NCBI GenBank assembly: GCA_937888365.1
Contig: CALBFA010000043.1
Coordinates: 12,498-76,497, forward strand
DNA: 64,000 nucleotides
Direction of reading: 5' to 3'
Source of the DNA: an uncultured Fidelibacterota bacterium
Lineage (GTDB): Bacteria > Fidelibacterota > UBA8477 > JABMPR01
Both the position numbers and the translations under genes were made by a program. The notes beneath the pieces are model-generated. The model was given only the letters and a program-made list of their open reading frames with translations, did not search any database and was not told where the DNA came from. Of the stretch, positions 3,732 through 44,686 are shown piece by piece (within the stretch, counting starts at the first letter, position 1; each line of letters starts with the position of its first letter).

Positions 3732-4856
3732 ATGTCATCTAGACATCAACTCATCTGGTTCTCAGAAATAAAATGGGACTATTTGATGACTCGAAAACAG
3801 CAGATCCTTACGCGCTTTCCACATCGTTGGGACATTTTATTCATCGAACCCTATGGATTAGGAAAAGCACAACACTGGAAATCAGTCAAGCGGGAAAATA
3901 TTACGGTCATCACAATCCCGTTTATGAAAACCATCCCTCATAGTAGATTAGCGAGGGTTCAATCAAATAATTTGGTCCAAATCATGTTTTCATGGTTTAT
4001 CACTATTTATCTTCAGATTGTATTGTTTAAATTGGGGTTCAATAAATCATCACGCCTTATTGGACTCAGCAATGTTTATTGGGGAAAGATAGCGTCAAAA
4101 CTCAAAGCCACACTCCATTTTTACGATGCAAATGACGGCCACTTAGATTTTCCTAATACACCTATTTGGTTGAAGGAATATTTGCATCAATATTTACAAA
4201 AGTCGGAGATTAACTTTTCTGTAAGTCCTGAGATTTCGAAAAAGATTAGCGACTTGGGTGCTCGAAATATTATTAATCTCGGGAACGGGGTCAATTTTCA
4301 TCATTTTAATTCGCCTCAAAACACACCCGAAGAACTTCAAAACATTGAAAAGCCTATTCTAGGATATGCTGGAGCGATGGATTGGCTAGACATAGATTTA
4401 GTTCAGAAAATTTGTATCGCTTTCCCAAACTATGAGATTGTACTTATCGGACCTGAGATTGAAGTGGGTTGGTATAAAAAACAAGTGAACTTTCAGGGAT
4501 TGAAAAATATTCGATATTTAGGAAAAGTTAATTACAGAGATTTACCTGCCTACGTTCAATCATTTAAAGTGGCTTTGATTCCTTTTGTTGTAAACGAACT
4601 CACCAGGCCTTTAAATCCGAACAAATTATACGAGTATAGCGCCGCTGGAAAAGTGGTCGTTTCCATGAATTACTCTTCAACAATTCAGAAGCTGAAAGAT
4701 ATTATTTTTGTCGGAAATACGCACGAGGAGTTTCTTGAGCAAATTGAAATAGCAATCGAAACCCCCAAAAACGAAGTCGGGATTCATTTAGCAAAACAAA
4801 ATAGTTGGGATGATATATCGAGAAAAATGGAAAATTCACTATTGGAAACGATTTGA
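3732..4856 (+). CDS. Glycosyltransferase, GT1-type (TuaH-like)
   Basis: N-terminal W-x-x-L-x-x-R-x-Q motif (WDYLMTRKQQILTRF). C-terminal GT-B half has VLIGP, NIRYLGKVNYRDLPAY and NPNKLYEYSAAGKVVVS. Confidence 0.6.
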   Translation: MSSRHQLIWFSEIKWDYLMTRKQQILTRFPHRWDILFIEPYGLGKAQHWKSVKRENITVITIPFMKTIPHSRLARVQSNNLVQIMFSWFITIYLQIVLFKLGFNKSSRLIGLSNVYWGKIASKLKATLHFYDANDGHLDFPNTPIWLKEYLHQYLQKSEINFSVSPEISKKISDLGARNIINLGNGVNFHHFNSPQNTPEELQNIEKPILGYAGAMDWLDIDLVQKICIAFPNYEIVLIGPEIEVGWYKKQVNFQGLKNIRYLGKVNYRDLPAYVQSFKVALIPFVVNELTRPLNPNKLYEYSAAGKVVVSMNYSSTIQKLKDIIFVGNTHEEFLEQIEIAIETPKNEVGIHLAKQNSWDDISRKMENSLLETI

Positions 4857-8308: not shown

Positions 8309-10165
8309 ATGAGTATTAGTACCTTTTTAGATCAAGACGAAAAGAAAGATCTGCTTAGATTTATTACAGCAGGTTCGGTAGATGATGGGAAATCAACTTT
8401 AATCGGCCGTTTATTGTATGATAGTAAGCTGTTGTATGAAGATCAGCTTGCCACCCTAGCTCAAGAGAGCAAAAGGCAAGGTTCTGCTGGTGCCGATATT
8501 GATTACGCGTTATTATTAGATGGATTGAAAGCTGAACGAGAGCAAGGAATAACCATCGACGTCGCGTATCGGTATTTTTCCACAAATAAACGAAAATTTA
8601 TTATTGCAGATACGCCTGGTCATGAGCAATACACACGAAACATGGTAACAGGCGCATCCACATCTCAACTTGCAATCGTTTTAATTGATGCCGAAAAAGG
8701 CGTTATTACACAAACCAAGCGGCATACATTTTTGATTGATCTTCTGGGAATAAAACACCTAATAGTGGCAATCAATAAAATGGATCTAGTTAACTATGCC
8801 CAAAATATATTTGATGAAATAGTCGAATCATTTAAATCTTTTTCGGCTAGACTATCAATACCTCATATCGAGTTTGTTCCTCTATCAGCTCTACGGGGAG
8901 ATAATGTCGTGGATGTCTCAGGAAAGATGCCTTGGTATCTTGGGAAAACACTTATGTCCATGCTGGAGACAATCCATATTTCAAATGCTTTTAATATGAT
9001 AGATTTTCGATATCCTGTACAATATGTCTTGCGACCTGATGGAAAATATCGTGGCTTTGCAGGGAGAATTGCTTCTGGAATTATTCGTGTGGGCGATGAG
9101 CTTATCGTGTTGCCATCACATTTAAAAACACGTGTAAAATCCATTAATGTCTCAACGCAAAATCAGAGTTACGCATTTGCTGGTCAATCCGTCAGTTTGG
9201 AACTTGAAGACGAAATTGATATTAGCCGAGGCGATTTACTCGTGCATCCTCAAAACATGCCTAAAACAGGACATACTTTTGATTCAACTTTGGTTTGGAT
9301 GGCTACTTCGCCGTTTGATGCATCAAGAACCTATCTTCTTAAACATACAACGCGTATTGTTAAAGCTCGTTTGAGTGAGATTCGGTATAAAATTGATGTC
9401 AATACCATGCATCGTTCGTCTGTTAAAACCTTGGGAATGAATGATATAGCAAGAGTCGCCGTTACAACACAAGAGGCCTTAAGTTTTGATGCCTATATTA
9501 AAAATAAAGAGACGGGCGCATTTGTCGTTATTGATGAACTGAGTCATGAAACAGTTGCCGTGGGTATGATTTTAGATAGGGTCGCAGAAGATGTTCCTCA
9601 ATCTCAAAAACGAACATTTGAAAGAGTCAATTATTCACAGGATAGTCTAGTGACGACTCAACAACGACTTAATAGCTATCAACAAAAAGCGCTAACATTT
9701 TGGGTCTCTTGCAATCAGCTATCTGAATGTAAAACATTCGCCTATGAGCTCGAAAAACGATTGTTTGAATCCGGAAAACATGTTGTTGTGTTGGATGCAT
9801 CGCTTGTAGGACCACTTCTTCAAGATAAGATTACTCTCATAGACGATTTCCAATACAACGAGTATCTTAAAATATTCGAGTTGGCAAAATTATTAAATGA
9901 CAATGGATTAATTGCCATCGTGAACGTTCCAATCCACAACATTTCACTAAAGCAGGATATTAAAAAAAATATTTACACAAAATCCCTAGTTGAAGTTTTT
10001 TTTGAAGTTTCTCTAAAAAAGAATAATAAGAGCCAATCTGATGCTGATTCTGAGAGTGACAAAGTAGAATCCAGGGAACAAATTTATTGTGTTTCCCAAA
10101 ATAATTGGGAGCAAATAATTACGAGGCTGTCAAAACTAGTGGAACCAGAAATCGACTGTTCGTGA
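8309..10165 (+). CDS. cysN: Sulfate adenylyltransferase subunit 1 (GTPase) fused to a degenerate APS-kinase-like domain
   Basis: GTPase motifs [14 protein letters not shown] and NKMD, then EF-Tu-like beta-barrel domains. The C-terminal ~170 aa align to CysC, but the P-loop reads [11 protein letters not shown]. Confidence 0.9.
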
Positions 10166-10210
10166 AGCGTGTCCAAAAAATTAAAAAAAAGACGCAATAA
10201 AAGGAATAGA

Positions 10211-11221
10211 ATGACGCACTCAACACTTAAAACCCAGAACCCAAATCTTATTTTAGTAATAGGCGGTGCAGGGTACATTGGAAGCCATATTGTGGCTGAT
10301 TTATTGGCTGAGGGTCACGACATTACGGTTTTTGATAACCTTTCGACGGGATTTAAAGAAAATATTCCCCGAGGTGTCAATTTCTACCATGGAGACATCC
10401 TAAATAAAGGCGATTTAAAGGGTGTATTTCAACAACCTTTCGATTGTGTGATGCATTTTGCGGCTCTAAAGGCGGCGGGGGATTCGATGCTAAATCCATC
10501 GAAATATGCGGAGCATAACATTAGCGGATCCATCAATATTCTTGACGCAATGCTCGCGGCAAATGTTAAAAACATAATCTTTTCGTCTTCGGCGGCGGTT
10601 TATGGGGCTCCGGAATATCTGCCTGTTGACGAAAAACATCCGACACATCCCGAAAACTTTTATGGCTATACTAAACTCGCCATAGAAGACATCCTAAATT
10701 GGTATGCGAAGCTTAAAAATATTAATTTTGCGGCGCTTCGTTATTTTAATGCGGCGGGTTATGATGCCTTGGGACGAGTGTCTCAACTCGAACGAAATCC
10801 TGCAAATTTATTACCTATCGTGATGGAAATTGCATCAGGCATGCGTAAAAAAATGCAGATTTTCGGTGATGATTATGACACACACGATGGAACTGGCGTA
10901 CGGGATTACATCCACGTGAACGACTTGGCAACGGCTCATATCAAAGCGATGAATTTTATTATGGAAAACAACCAAAGCTTAACCGTAAATTTAGCGACGG
11001 GTGAAGGATTTTCTGTTTTAGACGTCATCAAAGCGGTGGAGAAAATCACGGGGCAAAAAATAAATTACGAAATTGTAGCACGACGTCTCGGTGATCCAGC
11101 CGAACTAATCGCCCAAGCGTTACGGGCGGACGACATCTTGAAATGGAAGGCGAAACATTCTTCTTTAGAAAATATTTTGGAAACGATGTGGCGTGTGTAT
11201 AGAATACATCGACAGAATTAA
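10211..11221 (+). CDS. galE: UDP-glucose 4-epimerase
   Basis: Rossmann motif VIGGAGYIGSH and YGYTK catalytic motif, with GalE-like length. GTG 10169 would add a poly-Lys/Arg leader, so ATG 10211 is preferred. Confidence 0.85.
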   Translation: MTHSTLKTQNPNLILVIGGAGYIGSHIVADLLAEGHDITVFDNLSTGFKENIPRGVNFYHGDILNKGDLKGVFQQPFDCVMHFAALKAAGDSMLNPSKYAEHNISGSINILDAMLAANVKNIIFSSSAAVYGAPEYLPVDEKHPTHPENFYGYTKLAIEDILNWYAKLKNINFAALRYFNAAGYDALGRVSQLERNPANLLPIVMEIASGMRKKMQIFGDDYDTHDGTGVRDYIHVNDLATAHIKAMNFIMENNQSLTVNLATGEGFSVLDVIKAVEKITGQKINYEIVARRLGDPAELIAQALRADDILKWKAKHSSLENILETMWRVYRIHRQN

Positions 11222-11552
11222 AGTACGCGGAGGATACATAATTACTTTTGCCGATCATCATCCCCGTATAAAAATCGAGAAAAGCGATAAAAAACATGAT
11301 TAAATGCTCATGTGACGATTGTCAAAATTACAACATTTTGCTGGAAAAGACTTTCGAAATCGGGCGTTAATATTAGTATATCTCGGTCTCTAAGGATTGA
11401 TATTTACTAACAAATAAACGCTGAAAAGCATCCATAGAGATACAATAATTTTATCCATCGTGATCCACAATATTGGGACTCACCGTGGCGGAGCCGTGCG
11501 GTGAAGGTTAATTATTAATGAAAAGAAAAAGCACGACCACAAAGGGAAAATT

Positions 11553-11625
11553 GTAAGGTAAGCATCTTGCTTGCGAAAAAAGTCTAACACCAAGCTACAC
11601 AAAGAAGCACTAAGTTTCACAAAGA
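11553..11625 (+). repeat. Module B copy 1 (hairpin gtaaggtaagcatcttgcttgcg plus CACAAAG-rich tail)
   Basis: gtaaggtaagcatcttgcttgcgaaaaaagtctaacaccaagctacacaaagaagcactaagtttcacaaaga. Confidence 0.8.
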
Positions 11626-11760
11626 GGAAATTAAGTAAAGAAAGAACACGTGAAGCGAATGTTTCGCTTTTAACTTGATAAATTCTCTGTGCTCTCTGCG
11701 TAAATCTCCGTTTCCTCTGTGGTTAAAAGAGTCTCATATTATCTCATAGACTAAAATAAC

Positions 11761-11892
11761 GTAGAGCAAAAAACACTCTCCTCCATGCTAAGGAGGAGTA
11801 CCCGCCCGTTTGCGGGGGAGGTGGTAGAAAGTACTGCCTCATAAACAAATCCACTCAATCCTTGAAATCCGTGTCCAATATTTTTTACTTTA
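11761..11892. repeat. Element A copy 1 (~133-nt structured dispersed repeat)
   Basis: gtagagcaaaaaacactctcctcc..aaggaggagtacccgcccgtttgcgggggaggtggtag...atccttgaaatccgtgtcca..ttttttactt. One of five near-identical copies, all in the same orientation. Confidence 0.85.
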
Positions 11893-11951
11893 CCGTTATA
11901 AGAAAACAAAACAGTCCTCAAATGAACACAAATGGTTTAAATGGAAAACTT

Positions 11952-11986
11952 GTCACCTGTCACCCGTCACTCTTCACGCGTCAATT
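11952..11986 (+). repeat. Heptanucleotide array (5 units, GTCACNN type)
   Basis: gtcacct gtcaccc gtcactc ttcacgc gtcaatt. Strict 7-nt register. Confidence 0.8.
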
Positions 11987-12174
11987 CCCTCCGTGGTAAT
12001 TATTTTTAAGACGACACAGGAGATTTTCAACACAATGACAATGCCAAAATTATTTAAACGTCAATCGCATTTTTTTCATAAAAATACTTGTCCTTAACTA
12101 TTTAGCGAATACTTTAACGAATAAATGACGCATCAAAGCGTAAATATGGAAAACGAGAGATAAACTAATAAATT

Positions 12175-12858
12175 ATGAGGGAAAAAATGAAAAAATTATT
12201 GTTACTGATTTTCATGATTGTAGTAGCCCTACCTTTGATGGCTCAAGACGACATGATGATGGAAGATTCTACTGTAATGGAAGAAGTTGTAATGGATTCT
12301 ATGGCAACAGTTGTTGATACTGTCGCTGCAGAGTTAACAGATGTCGCTGAAGAAGCCGTTGCTGCCGTTGAAGAAATGGTCGAAGCACCAAAAGCCGAAG
12401 GCATGAAGGGTATTTTCGTCGCTCCACAATTTAACTATATCCTTTTCAAACCTTTAAATTCGGGTGGTTCAGGAATGAGCTATGGCATATCAGTTGGTAC
12501 ACCTGTTATGTTTGATTTATTCGGAATGAATGCTCATGTTGTTGTGGATTTAGGCATGGTCAGTGAAGGTACAGATGCAGCGGTTGAAGGTTTTGTTGCA
12601 ATGGCAGGTTTTTTGACTAAAGTCGCCAAACTTCCTTTTGGTTGCGTTGTTGTTGACTCAAAATTAGGTTGGGCTGGCGAAGGTTTTGGTGCTAATCTTT
12701 CTGCAAATATTGTTTATCCAGTTGCTGGTATGCCTTTAAAAATTGTTGCTAAAGTCGGTGCTGGTGGTGGTTTAATGGCAGATGATGCAGGTGCATTCAA
12801 CCATGTATTCTTTGGACTTGCTGCTAACTACAGCTTGGATGACTTACTCAACAAATAA
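12175..12858 (+). CDS. Hypothetical secreted protein with Met/Glu/Val-rich N-terminal region
   Basis: Signal peptide MKKLLLLIFMIVVALPLMAQD, then an acidic low-complexity segment and a Gly/Ala/Val-rich C-terminal half with alternating hydrophobicity. Followed by a terminator hairpin. Confidence 0.6.
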   Translation: MREKMKKLLLLIFMIVVALPLMAQDDMMMEDSTVMEEVVMDSMATVVDTVAAELTDVAEEAVAAVEEMVEAPKAEGMKGIFVAPQFNYILFKPLNSGGSGMSYGISVGTPVMFDLFGMNAHVVVDLGMVSEGTDAAVEGFVAMAGFLTKVAKLPFGCVVVDSKLGWAGEGFGANLSANIVYPVAGMPLKIVAKVGAGGGLMADDAGAFNHVFFGLAANYSLDDLLNK

Positions 12859-12880
12859 ACGAGTAAAAATAGTTGATTTT

Positions 12881-12908
12881 AAAAACCCCGGCTTGCTGGG
12901 GTTTTTTG
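12881..12908 (+). terminator. Intrinsic terminator downstream of 12175-12858
   Basis: aaaaaCCCCggcttgctGGGGtttttt: a G/C stem flanked by an A-run and a T-run, 23 nt after the stop codon. Confidence 0.7.
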
Positions 12909-12971
12909 TTTGATGGACGTGATGCCGTTTTGGGCTTCCAGTTCCCCGCAGATTGCGCAGAAAAAAAAATT

Positions 12972-13044
12972 GTAATGTAAGCCTCTTGCTTGCGGAAAAG
13001 TGTAACACCAAGGCACACGAAGAAACACCAAGTTTCACAAAGGG
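12972..13044 (+). repeat. Module B copy 2 (diverged hairpin)
   Basis: gtaatgtaagcctcttgcttgcggaaaagtgtaacaccaaggcacacgaagaaacaccaagtttcacaaaggg. Confidence 0.75.
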
Positions 13045-13120
13045 AAAAAAGTAAAAAGATAGCGAAAAATACAAAAACATCACACAAAGCCACGAAGCCA
13101 CAAAGAAATATTATCTCTCA

Positions 13121-13149
13121 TTCCCCTCCCAGGAGGGGTAGGGGTGGGT
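13121..13149 (+). repeat. Module C copy (CCCCTCC..GGAGGGG palindrome plus AGGGGTGGGT)
   Basis: ttcccctcccaggaggggtaggggtgggt. Confidence 0.8.
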
Positions 13150-13206
13150 CACTCTGATCAGCCAGTGGGCGGAGAAGCATCTCCTCAAGTCTCATAGCAA
13201 AAAATA

Positions 13207-13340
13207 GTAAGGTAAGCATCTTGCTTGCGAAAAAAGTCTACTACCCTTCGACAAGCTCAGTGCAGGCGCAGTCGCACGAAGCCACAAAGAGAAAAAGTCT
13301 ACCACTAAGTTGCACAAAGAAGCACCGAGTTTCACAAAGA
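13207..13340 (+). repeat. Module B copy 3 with an internal insertion of a ttcgacaagctcag module
   Basis: The hairpin is identical to copy 1. The tail is interrupted by ctacccttcgacaagctcagtgcaggcgcagtcgcacgaagccacaaag. Confidence 0.75.
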
Positions 13341-13354
13341 AAAGCATTATTTTA

Positions 13355-13384
13355 TTCCCCTCCAAGGAGGGGTTAGGGGTGGGT
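13355..13384 (+). repeat. Module C copy
   Basis: ttcccctccaaggaggggttaggggtgggt. Confidence 0.8.
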
Positions 13385-13507
13385 AAGAATTACAAATGAT
13401 AAATTACAAATGTATATAACAGCCGTATTTTTCTAAAATCAAATATAATTTTCTCTGCGTTCTCTGTGGTTAAAAGAGTCTCATGTAATCTCATAGACTA
13501 AAATAAC

Positions 13508-13640
13508 GTAGAGCCAAAAACACTCTCCTCCTTGCGAAGGATGAGTACCCGCCAGTTTGCGGGGGAGGTGGTAGAAAAGCACTGCCTTATAAATAAATCC
13601 ACCCAATCCTTGAAATCCGTGTCCACTATTTTTTACTTTT
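13508..13640. repeat. Element A copy 2
   Basis: Same element. Hairpin 1 carries one stem mismatch (aaggaTgag) and a loop change (gcg). Confidence 0.85.
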
Positions 13641-13821
13641 CCGTGACACACCTACTACAATAAGACACACGAGATTCTTCATGGCGTTGGATTATGTCAT
13701 CCTGAGCAGTGGAGTGCAGCGTAACACCCGTCGAAGGATATAGAAAGAAAAAATGAATGATTAATCTTAAATATTTCATGTCCAACACTTCGACAGGCTC
13801 AGCATGACATGAAACGGTTTT

Positions 13822-13870
13822 GTCACTTGTCACCCATAACTCATAACTCGTCACATGTCACTCTTTACTT
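13822..13870 (+). repeat. Heptanucleotide array (7 units)
   Basis: gtcactt gtcaccc ataactc ataactc gtcacat gtcactc tttactt. Lies 109 nt upstream of pal. Confidence 0.85.
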
Positions 13871-13978
13871 TTTTTATTTATAATTTAACATTTAGCATTT
13901 GTAATTTTCAACTATATTACGCCGAACAAAAAGGCGCTAACAAAAATTTACGCCTAAACCCTAAGGAGGGGATAAAAT

Positions 13979-14581
13979 ATGAGAAAGATAACCCTTGTTT
14001 TAATGATGCTGGTGATGGGGAGTGCTGCCCTGTTTTTTATGTCGGGATGTTCCAAAGAGAAGAAACAAGTGCCTGCAAATGACACAACAGTTGTCGAAGA
14101 GACAACCGCTGTTCGAGAACCCGTTAAAGAAACCGCTCCAACCAGCGATATGGTAGCCAAACAAGCAGATGCTGCTGCTGCGGAAAAGGCTAAGGCAAAA
14201 GTCCAAGCCAAAGCTGCAGCTAAAGTGCTACAGGATGAAAAAAATGTTTTTGAATCTGAAAAAATCCATTTTACCTACAACAAATCTGTTTTGGCGCCAT
14301 CTGCTCAAAAAGTATTAGAAAAGAAAGCCGACTGGTTGATTAAACATCCCAGCTATTCAGTACGTATCGAAGGTAATTGCGATGAGCGAGGCAGCAATAA
14401 ATACAACCTTACCCTGGGAGCCGATAGAGCTAGATCTGCTGAGAAATACCTTGTAAATATGGGTATTGCAGCAAACCGTATTTCCACAGTTAGCTACGGC
14501 GAAGAGAAGCCAGCTGATCCGAGCCATAACGAAAAGGCTTGGTCTCAGAATCGGAGAGATGAGTTCAAACTTATCAAGTAG
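13979..14581 (+). CDS. pal: Peptidoglycan-associated lipoprotein (OmpA-family)
   Basis: Lipobox FFMSGC. OmpA-like domain motifs NCDERGSNKYNLTLGADRARSAEKYL and VSYGEEKP. Confidence 0.85.
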   Translation: MRKITLVLMMLVMGSAALFFMSGCSKEKKQVPANDTTVVEETTAVREPVKETAPTSDMVAKQADAAAAEKAKAKVQAKAAAKVLQDEKNVFESEKIHFTYNKSVLAPSAQKVLEKKADWLIKHPSYSVRIEGNCDERGSNKYNLTLGADRARSAEKYLVNMGIAANRISTVSYGEEKPADPSHNEKAWSQNRRDEFKLIK

Positions 14582-14599
14582 TGACTTGCCGACTCTTGG

Positions 14600-14660
14600 C
14601 ATGTTTACGATGTTGAGAGTGAGGTTCAACTACAATTTGGTTGACCCACTCAACACATAA
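14600..14660 (+). pseudogene. Remnant of the 3' end of a paralogue of the 12175-12858 gene
   Basis: The reading frame ends ..RVRFNYNLVDPLNT-stop, against ..GLAANYSLDDLLNK-stop at 12858. aactacaatttggttgacccactcaacacataa matches aactacagcttggatgacttactcaacaaataa at 26 of 33 positions, followed by an identical downstream flank. Confidence 0.45.
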
Positions 14661-14685
14661 ACGAGTAAAAATAGTTGATTTTAAA

Positions 14686-14713
14686 AACCCCGGCTTGCTG
14701 TGGTTTTTTTGTC
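14686..14713 (+). terminator. Duplicated, slightly degenerate copy of the 12881 terminator, downstream of pal
   Basis: aaaaaccccggcttgctgtggttttttt. One stem mismatch relative to the 12881 copy. Confidence 0.55.
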
Positions 14714-14739
14714 TTACGGACGTGATGACGTTTTGGTTG

Positions 14740-14794
14740 AAAAGTGTAACACCAAGGCACACGAAGAAACACCAAGTTTCACAAAGGGAAAAAA
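14740..14794 (+). repeat. Module B copy 4 (tail only)
   Basis: 55 nt identical to 12996-13050. Confidence 0.85.
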
Positions 14795-14952
14795 ATAAAT
14801 CATTCCATCAGACAGCGCAGAATTTCGCAGAAATAATATATAGTTTAGAGCAGCCCATGACTTTAGTCGTGGGGGCAATTTGGAAAAAAACTTTTTTTAT
14901 AATCGTTAATCTCTCAGTAGTAAAATCTTCGGGGTTTCACGAGATCGCAATA

Positions 14953-15007
14953 ACCTACCCCTAACCCCTTCTCCCGACGCGTTGGTCGGGATTTTCAACG
15001 AAAGGGG
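14953..15007 (-). repeat. Module C copy, inverted, with a nested hairpin inserted in its loop
   Basis: acctacccctaaccccttc-tcccgacgcgttggtcggga-ttttcaacgaaagggg. Confidence 0.7.
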
Positions 15008-15024
15008 AACTAACTTTATCTTGT

Positions 15025-15121
15025 GTCGCTCATCACCCGTCACCTGTCACTCAAAACTCATAACTCATAACTTGCACTCGTCACCTGTCACATTTTGTAA
15101 TTTGTAATTCACCACTTTCAC
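15025..15121 (+). repeat. Heptanucleotide array (14 units, one 6-nt unit)
   Basis: gtcgctc atcaccc gtcacct gtcactc aaaactc ataactc ataactt gcactc gtcacct gtcacat tttgtaa tttgtaa ttcacca ctttcac. Ends 12 nt before the dppB-like ATG. Confidence 0.85.
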
Positions 15122-15133
15122 TTACCTTGCCCC

Positions 15134-16057
15134 ATGATTCAATTTATCATTCGCCGCATCCTTGAGCTCATTCCCGTAATTATAGGTATAATTTTACTCA
15201 CATTCATTCTCATGTACATTGTTCCTGGCGATCCCGTATTGAGTATGGTGGGTGAACGTTATGACGAAGCGACTCTAGAAATCCTGCGAGAACAATTCCA
15301 TTTAAATCAATCGCTACCCACTCAATTTTTTCATTATTTGAATGGTTTAATCCATGGTGATTTAGGCATTTCATTTGTGAATCAACAACCCGTTACGAAA
15401 CTCATAATGGAACGTTTCCCCGCAACAATGATTTTAGCACTAGGCGCCATGTTTATCTCCATATTATTAGGACTCTCTGTAGGTGTCATTTCAGCCATCA
15501 AACCCCATAGCATTATAGATCGCGCAGCGATGCTGTTTGCGTTGGCGGGGATATCGATGCCTGTATTCTGGGTGGGATTATTACTCGTGTTGGCAGCTCA
15601 ATCAATGGGTTGGCAATATCTCAGCGGCTATGGTTGTTGGGCCTATTTAGTGTTACCAGCCATCACACTGGGAACACGATCTGCTGCATTTCTCGCACGC
15701 GTTACACGAGCCAATATGCTTGAAGTTCTGAATCAAGATTATATACGAACTGCAAGAGCAAAAGGATTGAGTCAACTTATTGTCATTACAAAGCACGCCC
15801 TTAAAAACACACTTATTCCGATTGTCACCATTATTGGTGTTGATTTTGGTTCGTACTTGTCGGGAGCTGTATTGACAGAATCGATCTTTAATTGGCCGGG
15901 TATTGGTCGGCTAGCATTGAATGCAATTATGCAGCGAGATTTTCCCGTTATTCAAGGAACGGTTCTCGTCACGGCGTTGGTTTTTGTAACATCCAATTTT
16001 ATCGTCGATATTCTTTATGGTTATCTCGATCCGCGGATAAGAATTGAGAAATCATAA
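15134..16057 (+). CDS. ABC transporter permease, peptide/nickel type (DppB/OppB-like)
   Basis: N-terminal FIIRRILELIPVIIGI and EAA-like loop DYIRTARAKGLS, characteristic of the BPD_transp_1 OppB family. Confidence 0.85.
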   Translation: MIQFIIRRILELIPVIIGIILLTFILMYIVPGDPVLSMVGERYDEATLEILREQFHLNQSLPTQFFHYLNGLIHGDLGISFVNQQPVTKLIMERFPATMILALGAMFISILLGLSVGVISAIKPHSIIDRAAMLFALAGISMPVFWVGLLLVLAAQSMGWQYLSGYGCWAYLVLPAITLGTRSAAFLARVTRANMLEVLNQDYIRTARAKGLSQLIVITKHALKNTLIPIVTIIGVDFGSYLSGAVLTESIFNWPGIGRLALNAIMQRDFPVIQGTVLVTALVFVTSNFIVDILYGYLDPRIRIEKS

Positions 16058-16233
16058 ATGATTAATTTTAAAACGATTTCATTGATGGTGCTCGGAAAAG
16101 GAGCAAATAGGAGATCATTATTCCCTTCTTGTTGCCAATCCGGAATTCAATTCCCCTCTGCCCGACCTATGTGTCCGTCGAAGGATAAAGAATGAAAACG
16201 ATGAAAGTTCCATCACAGGAATAAGGAAATAAA

Positions 16234-17103
16234 TTGAGTCGCAAAGAAACCATAAGCGCTGAAACAATTCGCAAATTGAGTCACAATCCGATGGCAATTT
16301 TCGGTTTATTTCTCGTCCTACTTATTATAACAGTGGGGGTTTTTGCCCCCGTTTTTGCGCCGAATAATCCTTACGAGACAAACCTTGATATAAGTCTCCA
16401 AGCACCGTCAATGTCGCACTGGCTCGGCACAGACGAAGAAGGTCGTGATGTTTTATCTCGCATCATTTACGGTGCGAGGATTAGTTTAAAAGTCGGCTTT
16501 TTAGCCAGTACCATCAGCTTAATGATTGGTTCGCTTTTAGGTTTGATTGCCGGTTTTTTGGGTGGATGGCTTGATAAAATCATCATGCGTTTTACGGACG
16601 TTATGTTTGGCTTCCCAGCTCTTCTCTTTATGATTGGTATTACGGCTGCCGTTCCACGGCCTGGTATTGAAATTACAATGATTGCTATTGGCCTTGTCTC
16701 CTGGCCAAGTATGGCAAGAATTATGCGATCGCAAGTGCTAATGATTGCCAATAGAGAATATGTTTTGGCGGCTCAAGCATTGGGTTTTTCCAAAGCACGA
16801 CAAATGTTTCGACACGTTTTGCCCAATAGCCTTGCCCCCGTTATTGTTGCCTTTACAATGAGTATTGCAGGAGCGGTTATGGCAGAGGCATCATTGTCAT
16901 TTATTGGCTTAGGCGCTCAACCTCCAGAGCCCAGTTGGGGTTCTATGATTGCTTTTGGACGCGCACATCTACGAGGTGAATGGTGGATTTCTATTTTTCC
17001 AGGACTCGCAATTGCACTAATGGTTTTAGGGTTCAATCTTTTTGGTGAGGGGCTCCGTGATGCTCTAGATCCAACCATGAATGTTGATAAAAACGAACAA
17101 TAG
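16234..17103 (+). CDS. ABC transporter permease, peptide/nickel type (DppC/OppC-like)
   Basis: HWLGTDEEGRDVLSRIIYGARISL and EYVLAAQALGFS motifs typical of OppC/DppC. TTG start. Confidence 0.85.
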   Translation: MSRKETISAETIRKLSHNPMAIFGLFLVLLIITVGVFAPVFAPNNPYETNLDISLQAPSMSHWLGTDEEGRDVLSRIIYGARISLKVGFLASTISLMIGSLLGLIAGFLGGWLDKIIMRFTDVMFGFPALLFMIGITAAVPRPGIEITMIAIGLVSWPSMARIMRSQVLMIANREYVLAAQALGFSKARQMFRHVLPNSLAPVIVAFTMSIAGAVMAEASLSFIGLGAQPPEPSWGSMIAFGRAHLRGEWWISIFPGLAIALMVLGFNLFGEGLRDALDPTMNVDKNEQ

Positions 17104-17129
17104 CCACCAAGTCGCAAAGAAAAACGATA

Positions 17130-17176
17130 GTAAGGTAAGCATCTTGCTTGCGGTTGAAATAATCTTGTGCAAAGAG
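17130..17176 (+). repeat. Module B copy 5 (hairpin, diverged tail)
   Basis: gtaaggtaagcatcttgcttgcggttgaaataatcttgtgcaaagag, starting 27 nt after the dppC-like stop. Confidence 0.7.
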
Positions 17177-17202
17177 AAAAAAACTACTACGGAGCATGTC
17201 CC

Positions 17203-17230
17203 GTAACCAGTAACACGTGACACGTAACAA
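17203..17230 (-). repeat. Heptanucleotide array, inverted orientation (4 units)
   Basis: gtaacca gtaacac gtgacac gtaacaa. This is the reverse complement of the GT(C/T)ACNN register. Confidence 0.6.
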
Positions 17231-17312
17231 GAAAAAATAAAGACTCACACCCTTCGACAAGCTCAGGACAGGCGCCGTTGCACTAAGCCACAAAGAAAAA
17301 GCTTATTTTTTA

Positions 17313-17341
17313 TTCCCCTCCAAGGAGGGGCAGGGGTGGGT
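17313..17341 (+). repeat. Module C copy
   Basis: ttcccctccaaggaggggcaggggtgggt. Confidence 0.8.
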
Positions 17342-17347
17342 TTCTTT

Positions 17348-17417
17348 GTCACGTGTCACTCATAACTCAAAACCCATCACTCGTCACTCGTCACTTGTCA
17401 CACGTTTCCTGTCACCC
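17348..17417 (+). repeat. Heptanucleotide array (10 units)
   Basis: gtcacgt gtcactc ataactc aaaaccc atcactc gtcactc gtcactt gtcacac gtttcct gtcaccc. Confidence 0.85.
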
Positions 17418-17463
17418 TGAATGAAATGAAGGGTCCCCTCAAGTCTCATAGCAAAAAAATAGT

Positions 17464-17596
17464 GTAGAGCAAAAAACGCTCTCCTCCTTGCTAAGGAGGA
17501 GTACCCGCTAGTTTGCGGGGGAGGTGGTAGATTGCACTATCTCATAAACAAATCCACCCAATCCTTGAAATCCGTGTCCACTATTTTTTACTTTTT
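17464..17596. repeat. Element A copy 3
   Basis: Same element. Differences fall mainly in the hairpin-2 loop (cccgcTAgtttgcggg) and the central spacer. Confidence 0.85.
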
Positions 17597-17723
17597 CGTT
17601 ATAAGAAAACAAAACAGTCCTCAAATGCACACAAATGAACACAAATGGTTTAAATGGAAAGCCTGTCACTTTGCCACCATTTTATGCTTCGACGGACGCT
17701 TGCGCTGCTCAGCCAGACAAATG

Positions 17724-17751
17724 GTGACTTGTCACTCGTTACTTGTCACCC
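17724..17751 (+). repeat. Heptanucleotide array (4 units)
   Basis: gtgactt gtcactc gttactt gtcaccc. Confidence 0.7.
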
Positions 17752-17925
17752 TGCTCAGCCAGTTGGCGGAAAAGAGTCCCATGCAATCTCATAGACGAAA
17801 GTACAGCAAAACGACGCACGAGATTCTTCATTACGCTTTGCTCCATTCAGAATGACAAAACTAACGCAAACCTGTCACCCTGAGCCCGTCGAAGGGTCTC
17901 CTCAAATCTCATAGACTAAAATAGC

Positions 17926-18059
17926 GTAGAGCAAAAAAAACACTCTCCTCCTTGCTAAGGAGGAGTACCCGCCAGTTTGCGGGGGAGGTGGTAGAAAGTA
18001 CTGCCACAAAACAAATCCACCCAATCCTTGAAATCCGTGTCCACTATTTTTTACTTTTT
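17926..18059. repeat. Element A copy 4
   Basis: Same element, close to the consensus. Confidence 0.85.
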
Positions 18060-18136
18060 CGTGACACACGAGATTCTTCATTGCGCTTTGCTTCATTCAG
18101 AATGACAATATCTGGGTTTTTCACGCGTTCGCAAAA

Positions 18137-18164
18137 ACCTACCCCTAACCCCTTCTGGAAGGGG
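18137..18164 (-). repeat. Module C copy, inverted
   Basis: acctacccctaaccccttctggaagggg. Confidence 0.8.
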
Positions 18165-18192
18165 AACTAGCTTTCTCTTGTGCACAACGATA

Positions 18193-18265
18193 GTAAGGTA
18201 AGCATCTTGCTTGCGAAAAAAGTCTACCACCAAGTTCCACGAAGAAGCACCGAGTTCCACAAAGA
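18193..18265 (+). repeat. Module B copy 6
   Basis: gtaaggtaagcatcttgcttgcgaaaaaagtctaccaccaagttccacgaagaagcaccgagttccacaaaga. Confidence 0.8.
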
Positions 18266-18286
18266 AAAACAAAAGCAAAAAATAGC

Positions 18287-18420
18287 GTAGAGCAAAAAAA
18301 CACTCTCCTCCTTGCGAAGGAGGAGTACCCGCCCGTTTGCGGGGGAGGTGGTAGAAAACACTGCCTCATAAACAAATCCACCCAATCCTTGAAATCCGTG
18401 TCCACTATTTTTTACTTTTT
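18287..18420. repeat. Element A copy 5
   Basis: Same element. Hairpin-1 loop is gcg. Confidence 0.85.
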
Positions 18421-18505
18421 CGTGACACGCCTGCTACATAAAGACACACGAGATTCTTCATTACGCTCTGTAGTAAAATCTTCGGGGTTTCACGAGATCG
18501 CAATA

Positions 18506-18535
18506 ACCTACCCCTAACCCCTTCCAAAAGAGGAA
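18506..18535 (-). repeat. Module C copy, inverted, with a degenerate right arm
   Basis: acctacccctaaccccttccaaaagaggaa. Confidence 0.7.
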
Positions 18536-18550
18536 CTAGCTTTCTCTTGT

Positions 18551-18606
18551 GTCACCCATAACTCATAATTCAAAACCCATCACTCTTCACGCGTCACTCG
18601 TCACCG
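18551..18606 (+). repeat. Heptanucleotide array (8 units)
   Basis: gtcaccc ataactc ataattc aaaaccc atcactc ttcacgc gtcactc gtcaccg. Lies 97 nt upstream of mgtE. The unit order parallels the 17348 array. Confidence 0.85.
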
Positions 18607-18702
18607 CCCCCACCCATCAATAAGCGATATGAATAATAAACATTATAATAATTCTTCGCTTCAATTGACTTCATAGACCGAAAAACTAAATTCACTCCTC
18701 AA

Positions 18703-20160: not shown

Positions 20161-21273
20161 ATGCCTGTAACAATCACACTCTTTATTCTCGCCATTGCAA
20201 CATCAACTTATGTTGTATTTATCATTCTTATGTATGATGGCTTGAAGCGCGCAAGAATTGATGCCTCAAATGAGAACGCTTTACCACCAGTTTCCATCAT
20301 CATCGCGGCGAGGAATGAAGAAAGCAACATCTCTCATATTCTAGATGATATCATCAAACAAGATTACCCTAAAAATCTTCTTCATGTCTTTATTGCCAAT
20401 GACCGCTCGACAGATGCAACACCCACGATTCTAAGGAAATATTCTGCCCAATATGACTTCATCCATGACATTCATATTCATCAACACTCCACTGAAATGG
20501 CGGCAAAAAAAAATGCCTTAACACAATGCATCAAACATGTGAAAACCGAGATGATATTGAGTTGTGATGCTGACATTCGTTTGGGACTGAATTGGGTAAA
20601 AGCCATGGTTCAAGGATTCACAGAAAATACAGGTGTCATGACATCCTATTCGAGTGTAACGGGAAATAATTTGTTTGCTAGATACCAGGCCTTGGATTTC
20701 CTCGCCTTACAGGTTTCCAATGGAGCGATGCTTAATCGTGGCTATAATTGGTCTGGAACCGGACAAAATATTGCCTATCGAAAAAGTGCCTTTATCCAAA
20801 TTGACGGCTTCCGTCCAAGCGCTCATAAAGATAATGACGACGATATGTATTTAATCCAAACTATCCCGAAACAAACAGGGAGAGACGCTAAATTCAATTG
20901 GAATCCTGAAGCGATGGTTCAAACGCATCCTACGAGAGATTTCAAATCTTTTATGAATCAACGCATACGTTGGGCGTCAAATAGCAAAGGTTTGGAAAAG
21001 AGCAAACCTTTATTTTTCATCTTTCTTCTGTCCGCCTATCTTACCAATCTTGGCATTCTTATGTCGCTTTTCTTCGCCCCATTTTCACCTGTTCTTTGGA
21101 TCTCGATTTTAGTAAAATTCCTCGGCGAAGGAGCCATCCTTCTCAAAGGAAGTTCCTTAATGAATGAGAGGCGACTCATCATGCTTTTTCCCCTTTGGTT
21201 CATGATACAGCCACTGTACATCAGTTTTATGGGAATCGCTGGACGCATTGGAAAATATTCGTGGAAAGCATAA
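20161..21273 (+). CDS. Membrane-bound glycosyltransferase family 2
   Basis: VSIIIAARNEE, a D-x-D region (SCDAD) and Q-x-x-RW (QRIRWASN), with N- and C-terminal TM segments. Confidence 0.75.
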   Translation: MPVTITLFILAIATSTYVVFIILMYDGLKRARIDASNENALPPVSIIIAARNEESNISHILDDIIKQDYPKNLLHVFIANDRSTDATPTILRKYSAQYDFIHDIHIHQHSTEMAAKKNALTQCIKHVKTEMILSCDADIRLGLNWVKAMVQGFTENTGVMTSYSSVTGNNLFARYQALDFLALQVSNGAMLNRGYNWSGTGQNIAYRKSAFIQIDGFRPSAHKDNDDDMYLIQTIPKQTGRDAKFNWNPEAMVQTHPTRDFKSFMNQRIRWASNSKGLEKSKPLFFIFLLSAYLTNLGILMSLFFAPFSPVLWISILVKFLGEGAILLKGSSLMNERRLIMLFPLWFMIQPLYISFMGIAGRIGKYSWKA

Positions 21274-41703: not shown

Positions 41704-41956
41704 TCGGTTTACTTCTTTAATTATTTATGTAAGTCAAACGGCTTGGATCGCTTAATTTGATGCGCAAACCATGAAGGATTTTATTTTATCCAAAAAAGTG
41801 ACTATATTTGATTGATATACCTTATACCAGAATGATATGAAGCATCAAAATACTTCACAATTAAAATTCATCATATCCTCCTATTATTACCTAACTTATG
41901 CAATTAGTATCATAATGGTATATCTATTGCGAAAACCTTGGCGCGAGGAGAAAGCA

Positions 41957-44611: not shown

Positions 44612-44630
44612 AGCTGAAATTTGACAACAT

Positions 44631-44670
44631 AAAAAACCCTTGTAAACCATTCGGTTTACAAGGGTTTTTA
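44631..44670. terminator. Bidirectional intrinsic terminator between convergent genes
   Basis: aaaaaaCCCTTGTAAACCattcGGTTTACAAGGGttttta: a perfect 12-bp stem with a 4-nt loop, an A-run on the left and a T-run on the right. Confidence 0.85.
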
Positions 44671-44686
44671 TGTTCCGTAATATATC

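Follow-up and report, generated by a model that had tools for sequence, protein, structure and literature searches.

The window, a 64,000-nt stretch of DNA from an uncultured Fidelibacterota bacterium, contains at positions 11222 to 18702 four embedded genes, which encode a 227-aa protein of unknown function, an OmpA/Pal-like protein, and OppB-like and OppC-like permeases; the preliminary description had counted five. This region consists of 3081 nt of coding sequence and 4400 nt of non-coding DNA in five spacers of 953, 1120, 552, 176, and 1599 nt, exactly as first given. The rest of the window is indeed densely coding: the median gap between genes there is 52 nt, and the ORF-poor positions 1 to 2194 are the interior of a 1084-aa gene on the minus strand. 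Repeats detected by self-BLAST (E<1e-3) cover 3055 nt of the region, compared with 559 nt of the remaining 56.5 kb, where they represent a pair of ABC-F ATPase domains and a single terminator palindrome. A period-7 detector finds 116 positive positions within the spacers and 8 outside, and there are 19 terminator-like hairpins, against 7.5 +/- 3.1 expected from shuffles. In agreement with the preliminary description, the window has no recognisable transposase or integrase, although five of its proteins lack a Pfam match; nor does the 84-kb contig encode a Y1/HUH transposase or other recombinase.

Composite repeat of the spacers

The spacers are built as arrays of a single composite repeat of ~350 to 450 nt, in which the B hairpin is followed in turn by a reverse H hairpin, 10-nt decamers, the C palindrome, Y/TG blocks, and inverted C (Cr) with a nested hairpin. 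H hairpins in either orientation, heptad microsatellites, and the 150-nt element A are optional inserts, and some hairpins are nested within the loops of others. All repeat pairs are direct except C/Cr and forward/reverse H, and long collinear blocks recur from spacer to spacer (e.g., 13186-13644 and 17108-17599). The modules had been described as recurring in varying order and orientation; in fact, their order is conserved, nearly all of them keep one orientation, and they travel as a collinear composite, not independently. They do not make up the spacers "almost entirely" either. The module library and heptads account for 2551 of the 4400 nt (58%) and self-BLAST for 69%, with unique sequence found at 11222-11545, in the proximal promoter regions, and in most of 16058-16233. 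The features of the region are as follows.

11547-11642 (+): module B copy 1 (hairpin GTAAGCA-TCT-TGCTTGC and A-run), then CACnAAG decamers
11686-11758 (+): TG block (ttctctg..ctctgtggttaaaagagtctcat) and "ctcatagac" linker
11753-11900 (+): element A copy 1
11897-11990 (+): D extension of element A, then GTCACNN heptad array
12826-12933 (+): source copy of the local gene-end duplication, the 3' end of the 227-aa gene and its intrinsic terminator (12881-12906)
12966-13105 (+): module B copy 2 and decamers
13116-13149 (+): module C copy 1 (TTCCCCTCC-loop-GGAGGGG, G-rich tail AGGGGTGGGT)
13200-13346 (+): composite B copy 3, reverse H (ACCCTTCGACAAGCTCAG, degenerate stem), then decamers
13350-13411 (+): module C copy 2, then AATTACA heptads
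13413-13505 (+): Y block (acagccgtatttttctaaaatcaa), TG block, and linker, collinear with the L278 and L281 arrays
13500-13648 (+): element A copy 2
13696-13739 (+): intact H, long form GTC ATCCT GAGC[21-nt insert]GTCGA AGGAT
13782-13911 (+): degenerate reverse H (TTCGACAGGCTCA), then GTCACNN / CATAACT heptad array
14628-14736 (+): 89% identical duplicate of the last ~11 codons of the 227-aa gene and the terminator, after the Pal-like gene
14739-14799 (+): decamer block, 98% identical to 12995-13055
14913-15025 (+): preCr and Cr (inverted C), hairpin TCCCGACGCGTTGGTCGGGA nested in the loop; 88% identical to L273
15033-15109 (+): heptad arrays, stopping ~25 nt short of the oppB start codon
16058-16233 (+): 176-nt oppB/oppC insertion, with the 5' half of C and the 3' half of H (ccgtcgaaggat)
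17123-17343 (+): composite B copy 4, GTAACNN heptads, reverse H (17248-17276), and C copy 3
17346-17434 (+): GTCACNN heptads running directly into an intact H with AT-shifted loop (17411-17434)
17456-17660 (+): element A copy 3 (17456-17603) and D extension
17688-17803 (+): degenerate reverse H with nested insert, heptads, W block, and linker
17823-17856 (-): intact H, GTC ATTCT ... AGAAT, the "cacgagattcttcatt" module of the preliminary description
17874-17897 (+): intact canonical H, GTC ACCCT GAGCCCGTCGA AGGGT
17919-18066 (+): element A copy 4
18073-18106 (-): intact H hairpin
18137-18268 (+): Cr (inverted C), B copy 5, then decamers
18280-18427 (+): element A copy 5 (96.6% identity with copy 4)
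18466-18607 (+): preCr, Cr, and a heptad array stopping ~95 nt before the mgtE start

The duplicate of the 227-aa gene end and terminator downstream of the Pal-like gene is a relic of segmental duplication. The oppB and oppC genes abut or overlap in relatives (they abut in three). The W block and linker are also present in L278, and TG-like copies in Acidobacteriaceae L041.

The five copies of element A are 89 to 97% identical, compared with only 60 to 85% for the neighboring modules. Its minus strand contains three hairpins, seen in copy 1, the last with a terminator-like CTCCTCC..GGAGGAG stem and a T-run; the 9-bp GC-rich hairpin and T-run are kept in all five copies. Substitutions spare the first two hairpins, and where copy 3 differs in the third, pairing is maintained via G-U. 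There is no target duplication around the element, and its terminal inverted repeat is weak and driven by A/T runs. With C-rich, anti-Shine-Dalgarno-like stretches (CCACCUCC and CUCCUCCUU), these features would fit a family of minus-strand small RNA genes of ~140 nt with their own intrinsic terminator, the remaining mosaic being mere neighborhood. We regard this as unlikely: no promoter-like site is found upstream on the minus strand, folding z-scores are merely -1.5 to -2.1, Rfam contains no match, and five near-identical copies allow no real covariation. Element A is also missing from the L278 and L281 arrays and from every collection scanned, and is lineage-specific.

H and C hairpin families

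The "gtcaYcctgagc...gtcgaaggRt" and "cacgagattcttcatt" modules represent a single hairpin superfamily, H, in which GTC is followed by a 5-bp covarying stem whose loop, GAGC-NN-GTCGA, is conserved. Among the 54 copies whose stems the search did not fix, 31 have perfect 5-bp stems (2.1 expected) of 15 distinct kinds, and GTC precedes 27 of these 31. The covariation score, 0.374, compares with 0.203 +/- 0.022 for shuffles and is reached by 0 of 500 of them. At a stem pair free of search constraints, 290 of 304 copies are Watson-Crick, with 13 T.G wobbles and 1 C.A mismatch; this excess of T.G over C.A identifies the GTCA strand as the folding strand. H forms its hairpin as a single strand, in which the stem covaries and the loop is conserved.

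At least 120 genome stretches, belonging to about 18 phyla and including the isolates Pedobacter, Bifidobacterium, Aquimarina, and Acidobacteriaceae KBS 146, contain H (~8 expected by chance, calculated), as do at least 120 viral stretches, with flanks unrelated between stretches. Such retention of the loop, along with the covarying stems and the tolerance of T.G but not C.A, might indicate host-selected RNA or DNA signals, acting as 3'-end stabilisers, insulators, or nucleoid-protein sites and read by a universal host factor that recognizes the loop, rather than mobile DNA. The composite is also co-directional with the upstream gene throughout the window, L278, and L281, and the 10-nt decamer period matches the DNA helical repeat. 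Nevertheless, a host signal appears quite unlikely, as the orientation of H itself is unbiased with respect to the flanking genes (44/34 and 48/40; 166 co-directional cases) and H, although mainly intergenic, is sometimes found inside ORFs, e.g., in L074, where it lies in frame within the linker of a ribonucleotide reductase. Further, H copy number is very uneven among related genomes, the closest relatives having zero copies in 63 kb, and the nesting and tandem reiteration resemble insertion products.

Module C is found outside this lineage in 11 viral stretches (12 matches), nearly all of which include the 5' half of C that was not part of the search. Inverted C doublets are seen at 3 of the 11 viral loci, and the loop of one viral C contains a nested H hairpin. 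Heptad arrays from other phyla lie near H in 12 of 53 cases, versus 2.5 expected at random. Rfam and full-text literature searches by sequence return no name for H or C, consistent with the earlier failure to name a described family; both belong to unnamed families spread over many lineages. The resemblance to the short repeats that spawn junk ORFs in the FCB group stands as to the kind of repeat, but not as to its range, which extends far beyond that group.

Assembly integrity and dispersal

The region is genuine sequence, and the misassembly that the preliminary description wished to see checked is excluded, because the independent ENA assembly L002 (99.98% identity over 14,039 nt, zero gaps or indels) and a third assembly, L013, match it without gaps. 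The three independent assemblies agree base for base; they show zero array indels, and the population is clonal. An artefact or chimera, which might be suspected from the several contigs of other assemblies that end inside 18226-18470 and from scaffold L004, which fuses A copy 5 to A copy 3, is therefore extremely improbable. We view an integron-like cassette array with attC repeats in the same light. Its genes would be co-oriented with structured repeats between them, as they are here, but the window lacks an integrase, neither strand of the region contains RYYYAAC...GTTRRRY core pairs, and the embedded genes are housekeeping ones with orthologues in relatives.

The composite is found at two further loci, where its module order is conserved, with modules 87 to 95% identical to those of the window and unrelated flanking genes.

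L278, 13859-14937: composite array after a DAGK/YegS-like gene, with tandem 370-nt units
L281, 5610-6124: composite array after acetyl-CoA synthetase

Both contigs share samples with the window (JGI 3300074305, ERR2206756, ERZ23486372, and ERZ12837xx) and have similar GC content, and they lie at a similar distance from the Marinimicrobia relative L010, to which their COX proteins are 65 to 90% identical, compared with 76.5 to 78% for OppB/C of the window. They probably come from the same genome, whose host is a Marinimicrobia-related bacterium. Because the composite adjoins unrelated genes on these contigs, its repeats are dispersed, not confined to one locus, and the core of the preliminary description, a non-coding mosaic of dispersed modules without a transposase of its own, is supported by these loci and by the wide spread of H and C.

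A purely local origin would have one ancestral spacer duplicated and decayed in place through slippage, unequal crossing-over, and segmental duplication, with no mobility and no dispersed family. The collinear spacer blocks and the duplicated gene end fit such a history, as do the absence of the modules from the other ~77 kb of the contig, a second repeat island there with a different vocabulary, and the closest pair of A copies being neighbors. However, A copy 2 is nearer to copies 4 and 5 than the adjoining copy 3 is, H and C have unrelated flanks in many phyla and viral contigs, and L278 and L281 contradict local origin alone, their flanking genes ruling out mis-binned duplicates of the locus. 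Local duplication has contributed to the arrays but is not sufficient to account for them, and as a sole explanation it is improbable.

Proposed growth of the arrays and related systems

The region is probably a cluster of BIME-like mosaic arrays, i.e., non-autonomous, non-coding repeats between four intact housekeeping genes, that grew in two steps, as proposed for Escherichia coli REP/BIME. In the first, a trans-acting, structure-specific single-strand DNA enzyme encoded elsewhere, for which an HUH/Y1 transposase (RAYT/IS200 type) is the likeliest candidate, would insert or recombine hairpin units, leaving no terminal inverted repeats or target duplications. In the second, slippage and unequal recombination would amplify them locally into tandem composites and heptad or decamer runs, at times carrying gene ends along; the gene-end-plus-terminator duplicate and the tandem units of L278 are signs of such amplification. 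We infer mobility rather than observe it, because no pair of filled and empty sites was found. Against the BIME-like reading stand the clonal population with its invariant arrays, the contig's lack of a transposase, and the absence of any protein family recurring beside H at 120 unrelated loci; the sole RAYT homologue in the 2.5 Mb examined, in L074, is flanked by different hairpins.

The closest known analogue is REP/BIME with RAYT (TnpA-REP) of Enterobacteria, Pseudomonas, Xanthomonas, and Coxiella (PMC3333891, PMC2817692, PMC3116915), including the REP/BIME model and Y1 elements without TIR or TSD (PMC3333891). Shared features are short extragenic hairpins with a conserved 5' GTxx motif, strand-specific hairpin formation, mosaics of hairpins and linker motifs occurring as singles, inverted doublets, and tandem arrays, the lack of terminal inverted repeats and target duplications, and the proposed growth by transposition or recombination followed by local amplification. 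The RAYT-associated Coxiella REP GTAGGTTGGGCTGAGCTTGCGAAGCCCAAC (GTAG-G-TTGGGCT-GAGCTTGCGA-AGCCCAA) has an H-like build and nearly the loop of H (PMC2817692, Table 1). However, the 5' motif of H is GTC(A) rather than the REP-defining GT[AG]G; H conserves its loop, not its stem, across about 18 phyla, whereas REPs are lineage-specific. No RAYT is found in the contig or beside H elsewhere, and the composite is longer and takes in a 150-nt element as well as heptad and decamer microsatellites.

Elhai et al. (2008, Genome Res 18:1484; cited in PMC3116915) reportedly found small dispersed repeats (SDR) embedded in heptameric tandem repeats (STRR) in Nostoc and other cyanobacteria. By description, these share the 20- to 30-nt intergenic repeats, 7-nt tandem arrays, mutual nesting, and lack of an encoded transposase, but are set apart by phylum and sequence, and here a larger collinear composite travels. 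Pneumococcal BOX (boxA-boxB-boxC) and Neisseria Correia elements are modular, MITE-like repeats (PMC3184786). They are intergenic, 100 to 200 nt long, multi-copy, foldable, and able to carry terminators or promoters, with a size similar to that of element A and the C...Cr unit; in contrast, neither terminal inverted repeats nor target-site duplications are clear at element A, and the inverted C/Cr pairs enclose variable content.

The arrays appear to interrupt the oppB-oppC operon and to sit at synteny breakpoints. They probably insulate transcription or stabilise 3' ends, and element A would present a terminator-like hairpin to antisense transcription.

The repeat region and its composite unit

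The region at 11222-18702 consists of five spacers (4400 nt in total) and four intact embedded genes on the + strand (3081 nt in total), flanked by genes for a CysN/C fusion, a GalE-like epimerase and MgtE.

Spacers and embedded genes
11222-12174, spacer
12175-12858, +, 227-aa signal-peptide protein without a Pfam match
12859-13978, spacer
14582-15133, spacer
16058-16233, spacer between oppB and oppC (176 nt)
17104-18702, spacer
other embedded genes, +: OmpA/Pal-like lipoprotein, OppB-like permease, OppC-like permease

The spacer coordinates and the coding sum of the preliminary description hold; it counted five embedded genes where there are four. The rest of the window is dense in genes, as had been stated, with a median gap of 52 nt outside the region, and the ORF-poor first 2.2 kb are the interior of a 1084-aa minus-strand gene. 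Self-BLAST finds 3055 nt of repeats in the region versus 559 nt elsewhere in the window, the latter comprising the two ATPase halves of an ABC-F protein and one terminator palindrome. Period-7 positions number 116 inside and 8 outside, and the region has 19 terminator-like hairpins versus 7.5 +/- 3.1 in shuffles. At 44626-44674, a 49-nt near-perfect palindrome separates the convergent genes 41837-44611 (+) and 44687-46618 (-); unrelated to the modules, it probably terminates transcription in both directions.

Mis-assembly, which had been named as a possible source of the pattern, is excluded by the concordance of independent assemblies across the region. The 84-kb contig Ga0633373_0000087 of JGI 3300074305 includes the window, an independent ENA assembly matches it over 14,039 nt (99.98%, gapless), and a further assembly differs from it by a single SNP in 20,816 nt. 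Contigs of other assemblies end within 18226-18470, where the repeats would produce such breaks. The assemblies are 1 to 3 SNPs apart and display no strain-level array polymorphism.

Mapping the module library back onto the region gives a composite with the order B, optional reverse H, decamers, C, Y and TG blocks, linker, and Cr.

Modules of the composite
B, hairpin GTAAGCA-TCT-TGCTTGC, then an A-run
decamers, CACnAAG
C, palindrome TTCCCCTCC-loop-GGAGGGG, then tail TTAGGGGTGGGT
linker, 'ctcatagac'
Cr, inverted C, with hairpin TCCCGACGCGTTGGTCGGGA sometimes nested inside the loop

Optional inserts are element A, its D or reverse-H 3' extensions, forward H, and heptad arrays (GTCACNN, CATAACT, AATTACA), which end 25 to 185 nt ahead of the next start codon. 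The modules had been said to recur in different orders and orientations; their order is in fact consistent, and all copies are direct save C/Cr and forward/reverse H. The spacers had also been described as built almost entirely of modules, whereas the library and heptads explain 58% of the spacer bases and self-BLAST 69%.

Related genomes, from which the modules that are insertions were to be recognized, allow a comparison at the oppB-oppC junction only. There, the two genes abut or overlap in three relatives, and the spacer in the window contains the 5' half of C and the 3' half of H. Around the arrays, synteny is lacking with the nearest relatives, which are only 79% identical in OppB and do not have the modules. 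The stretch 14628-14736 is an 89% copy of the last codons of the 227-aa gene and its terminator (12826-12933); thus, segmental duplication has also acted in the region. In the protein itself, the signal peptide is accompanied by an acidic stretch rich in Met, Val and Glu, and the C-terminal half is Gly-rich; a relic of the 3' end of a paralogue occupies 14628-14660. Directly upstream of the arrays (window 8309-11221 and L012, a stretch upstream on the same contig) is a sulfate-activation/sulfotransferase/glycosyltransferase polysaccharide cluster that encodes PAPS reductase, APS kinase, CysNC, Sulfotransfer_1, GT4, flippase and GalE.

Element A (~150 nt) is present in five copies, which are 89 to 97% identical, versus 60 to 85% for the neighboring modules.

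Copies of element A (start)
A1, 11753
A2, 13500
A3, 17456
A4, 17919
A5, 18280

The closest pair is the adjacent A4/A5, but A2, three genes away, resembles A4 and A5 more closely than A3 does. On the minus strand, each copy can be read as three hairpins, the third being CTCCTCCTTnGCAAGGAGGAG followed by a T-run; its folding z-scores are modest. No target duplications or flanking direct repeats are seen at A, and its inverted ends amount to A-run/T-run pairing. A MITE is therefore rejected, as A has neither terminal inverted repeats beyond this pairing nor a target duplication, and no parent IS was found. A CRISPR array is likewise rejected: the copies of A are 1748, 3955, 463 and 361 nt apart, the spacing of the other modules follows no regular pattern, and the would-be spacers are repeats or genes. 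Rfam holds nothing resembling A, and translations of its frames have no protein database matches. Two different conserved blocks of A have no matches in the GTDB species genomes, JGI metagenome contigs or IMG/VR, so A is either restricted to this lineage or carried by a lineage absent from these collections.

The composite on other contigs

The preliminary description had allowed that the modules might be confined to this locus. They are not: a scan with module B gives two true matches, on separate contigs of one ENA assembly (stretches L278 and L281), and each carries the composite.

Arrays on other contigs
L278, 1100 nt, after a DAGK/YegS-like gene, read in the direction of that gene
L281, 550-760 nt, after an acetyl-CoA synthetase gene, read in the direction of that gene

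The order in both is that of the window (B, reverse H, decamers, C, Y, TG, Cr with nested hairpin), in three to four tandem units of ~370 nt each and with 87 to 95% module identity to the window. The flanking genes show no kinship with those of the window. Both contigs also occur in JGI 3300074305, ERR2206756, ERZ23486372 and the ERZ12837xx series, precisely the samples that contain the species of the window. Their COX proteins are 65 to 90% identical to those of a Marinimicrobia relative, as compared to 76.5 to 78% for OppB/C of the window. The shared samples and the similar distance to the relative suggest that these contigs are probably further parts of the same genome. In ~120 kb of this probable genome there are thus three array loci.

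Other repeats and mobile elements are found on the same contigs. About 7 kb ahead of window position 1 (L012 1-545), a DUF58 gene is preceded by a second repeat-rich intergenic stretch. This one consists of at least 4 copies of another unit, ~100 nt in length, has the hairpins GAGCTC-TGTA-GGAGC and GCTCC-AGA-GGAGC, and contains none of the modules of the window. Within L278 15794-21118, a tyrosine recombinase (Phage_int_SAM_4 plus Phage_integrase) is encoded 830 nt from the array, with small + strand ORFs downstream and a GC-rich 190-nt element in two copies (16965-17154 and 20899-21088; 99.5% identical) that start with GTTAGCGCCGCC, end with GCGGTGCGTTAG and have no Rfam match. This layout is loosely integron-like. 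For the window, an integron attC or CALIN is rejected, as no pairs of the complementary cores RYYYAAC and GTTRRRY, which bound the imperfect hairpin of an attC, are found at a spacing of 45 to 160 nt on either strand of 11222-18702. An IS256-family transposase (Transposase_mut) is encoded at the end of the contig bearing the acetyl-CoA synthetase array (L282 13552-14685), indicating that the probable same genome has classical IS elements.

The H hairpin and module C in other bacteria and in viral contigs

In the window, five H hairpins are intact and at least five more are degenerate; every one is intergenic and within the region. Two motifs listed separately in the preliminary description, gtca(t/c)cctgagc... 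and cacgagATTCTtcattgcgct...AGAATgaca, are genuine but belong to one hairpin, the latter being read from the opposite strand and having an AT-shifted loop. The pattern GTCAYCCTGAGC-N(0-30)-GTCGAAGGRT, run against the GTDB species genomes and IMG/VR, matches at least 120 stretches in each, with ~8 expected by chance in the former (equiprobable bases); isolate genomes are included. The matches listed come from Nitrospirota, Verrucomicrobiota, Bacteroidota, Ignavibacteriota, Zixibacteria, Acidobacteriota, Eremiobacterota/Vulcanimicrobiota, Chloroflexota, Bacillota, Actinomycetota, Patescibacteria, Pseudomonadota, Planctomycetota, Spirochaetota, Fibrobacterota, Gemmatimonadota, Desulfobacterota and others. 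The flanks show no kinship among the loci. H is 24 to 52 nt long, with a stem of 5 bp (up to 8 bp), and the center of its loop tolerates nested GC-rich hairpins as long as 30 nt.

A query of these loci with just the loop yields H copies whose stems it leaves unconstrained. A perfect 5-bp stem is formed in 31 of 54 such copies (2.1 expected), with 15 distinct stems, and GTC precedes 27 of the 31. Stem covariation is 0.374, versus 0.203 +/- 0.022 for shuffles, none of 500 of which reached the observed value, and 0.11 to 0.16 for slid controls. The single stem pair left free by the pattern is Watson-Crick in 290 of 304 copies; the exceptions are 13 T.G and one C.A, which identifies the GTCA strand as the one that folds. 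GTC precedes 119 of 142 loop matches, mostly as GTCA or GTCG, rather than GTAG or GTGG.

Crude ORF calling places 157 of the 199 copies in genomes between genes, with no orientation bias relative to co-directional neighboring genes (44/34 and 48/40). In L074, an Acidobacteriales MAG locus, H at 4820-4855 is in frame within the C-terminal linker of a 1099-aa ribonucleotide reductase (peptide ...AVILSESAAESKDP...). No gene is recurrently linked to H among 120 loci, the largest protein cluster covering 7. In unrelated genomes, 12 of 53 period-7 arrays have an H no more than 100 nt away, versus 2.5 at random; for other non-coding periods, the control gives 2 of 31. In this link to heptads, H is reminiscent of the small dispersed repeats reportedly described in Nostoc by Elhai in 2008 (cited in PMC3116915). 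Tandem composite units, each with H, are found in Turneriella (L091 6437-7137), a Bacteroidales-like MAG (L111 5328-5962) and a viral contig (L183), with periods of 74 and 127 nt in these lineages, and one 14-kb viral stretch has 13 copies of H.

The 3' half of C gives 12 matches in 11 viral stretches. Nearly all 12 have the TTCCCCTCC-loop directly upstream, though it was absent from the query. In these viral loci, one H-type hairpin is nested inside the loop, and inverted doublets occur at three. A TG-like block is found twice in one Acidobacteriaceae locus.

Relation to REP/BIME elements and significance

The preliminary description could name no described family for the modules, and neither Rfam nor a literature search by sequence strings, which returned primers and chance matches only, gives them a name. 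In the window, no Rfam family reaches its gathering score, and the lone match with E<1 is CRISPR-DR10 (22.6 bits), over module C; no family is found over H in H-rich loci or over the L278 array. Whole spacers have no BLAST matches in plasmids and phages, as the modules are too short for the method. Spurious ORFs spanning B, C and H, searched in joined form, retrieve nothing at E<=1 among 5.8 billion proteins, where matches this short cannot attain significance.

REP/BIME elements are 5' GTxx hairpins with linkers, inverted pairs and tandem clusters, lack terminal inverted repeats and target duplications, and show single-strand specificity (PMC3333891). The arrays described here share this architecture (PMC3333891). 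C/Cr and forward/reverse H alternate among linker blocks in a fixed order, and L278 has tandem 370-nt units; the correspondence with the E. coli BIMEs is one of architecture and need not reflect homology. Like REPs, H is a short extragenic imperfect palindrome of the 20- to 40-nt class, and a RAYT-associated REP of Coxiella has nearly its loop and build (PMC2817692, Table 1). REPs commonly exceed 100 copies per genome and form inverted doublets; inverted pairs of H and of C/Cr are likewise observed. However, in REPs a GT[AG]G tetranucleotide is conserved on the 5' side of the hairpin foot (PMC3333891, PMC2817692), whereas H is preceded by GTC (GTCA/GTCG), and in H the loop is the conserved part, across phyla. 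REPs also go with a cognate RAYT gene, for a Y1 transposase, which they typically flank; no Y1 transposase or RAYT is encoded in the 84-kb contig or in L278/L281. A tblastn probe with E. coli RayT yields one real match in 2.5 Mb of H-containing loci, a Y1_Tnp/RAYT homologue in L074 (3765-4253; Y1_Tnp E=2.5e-7), ~600 nt downstream of H. Its flanking hairpins, GGCACGG..CCGTGCC and GGGGC..GCCCC, are unlike H and form a REPtron-like unit. Membership in REP/BIME is not established because of the GTC(A) motif, the cross-phylum loop, the lack of Y1 in the contig, the lack of a protein recurring beside H, and the different hairpins around the L074 RAYT.

A cluster of BIME-like mosaic repeat arrays in this Marinimicrobia-related bacterium is well supported as real and reproducible, and two of its hairpin families are very widely distributed and apparently unnamed. 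In the REP/BIME growth model, transposition or recombination comes first and local amplification second (PMC3333891). Similarly, the arrays here arose through spread of the composite unit plus local amplification, the spread probably being driven by a trans-acting, hairpin-specific single-strand enzyme. The arrays might also have a regulatory role.

On a bolder reading, which we regard as rather unlikely, H may be an undescribed pan-bacterial element, found in ~18 phyla, isolates and viral contigs. It is made up of GTC, a 5-bp stem that covaries freely and a conserved 11- to 12-nt loop, GAGC-NN(N)-GTCGA; it accepts nested GC-rich hairpins at its apex, folds on one strand and is associated in position with heptad microsatellites. 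On this reading, it would be the recognition site of one conserved protein and, with C, would seed BIME-like mosaics well outside the Proteobacteria. The partner would be a hairpin-specific transposase or recombinase shared across phyla, or else a nucleic-acid-binding factor that is universal.

The usual picture of Marinimicrobia is one of streamlining, with little space between genes (PMC6798728). A lineage in which kilobase mosaics are tolerated among essential genes and within an operon offers a natural case for studying how repeats of a selfish or structural kind invade compact genomes. Such repeats are also a nuisance: short-read assemblies break at them, with contigs ending inside, and spurious ORFs are seeded. 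The H signature and the C family provide annotators with concrete masking targets, and H is a defined single-stranded DNA or RNA substrate for fishing out the protein that recognizes it. Should that protein be a Y1/HUH enzyme, the reach of the REP/RAYT idea would grow from a few lineages of Proteobacteria to a large part of the bacterial domain.
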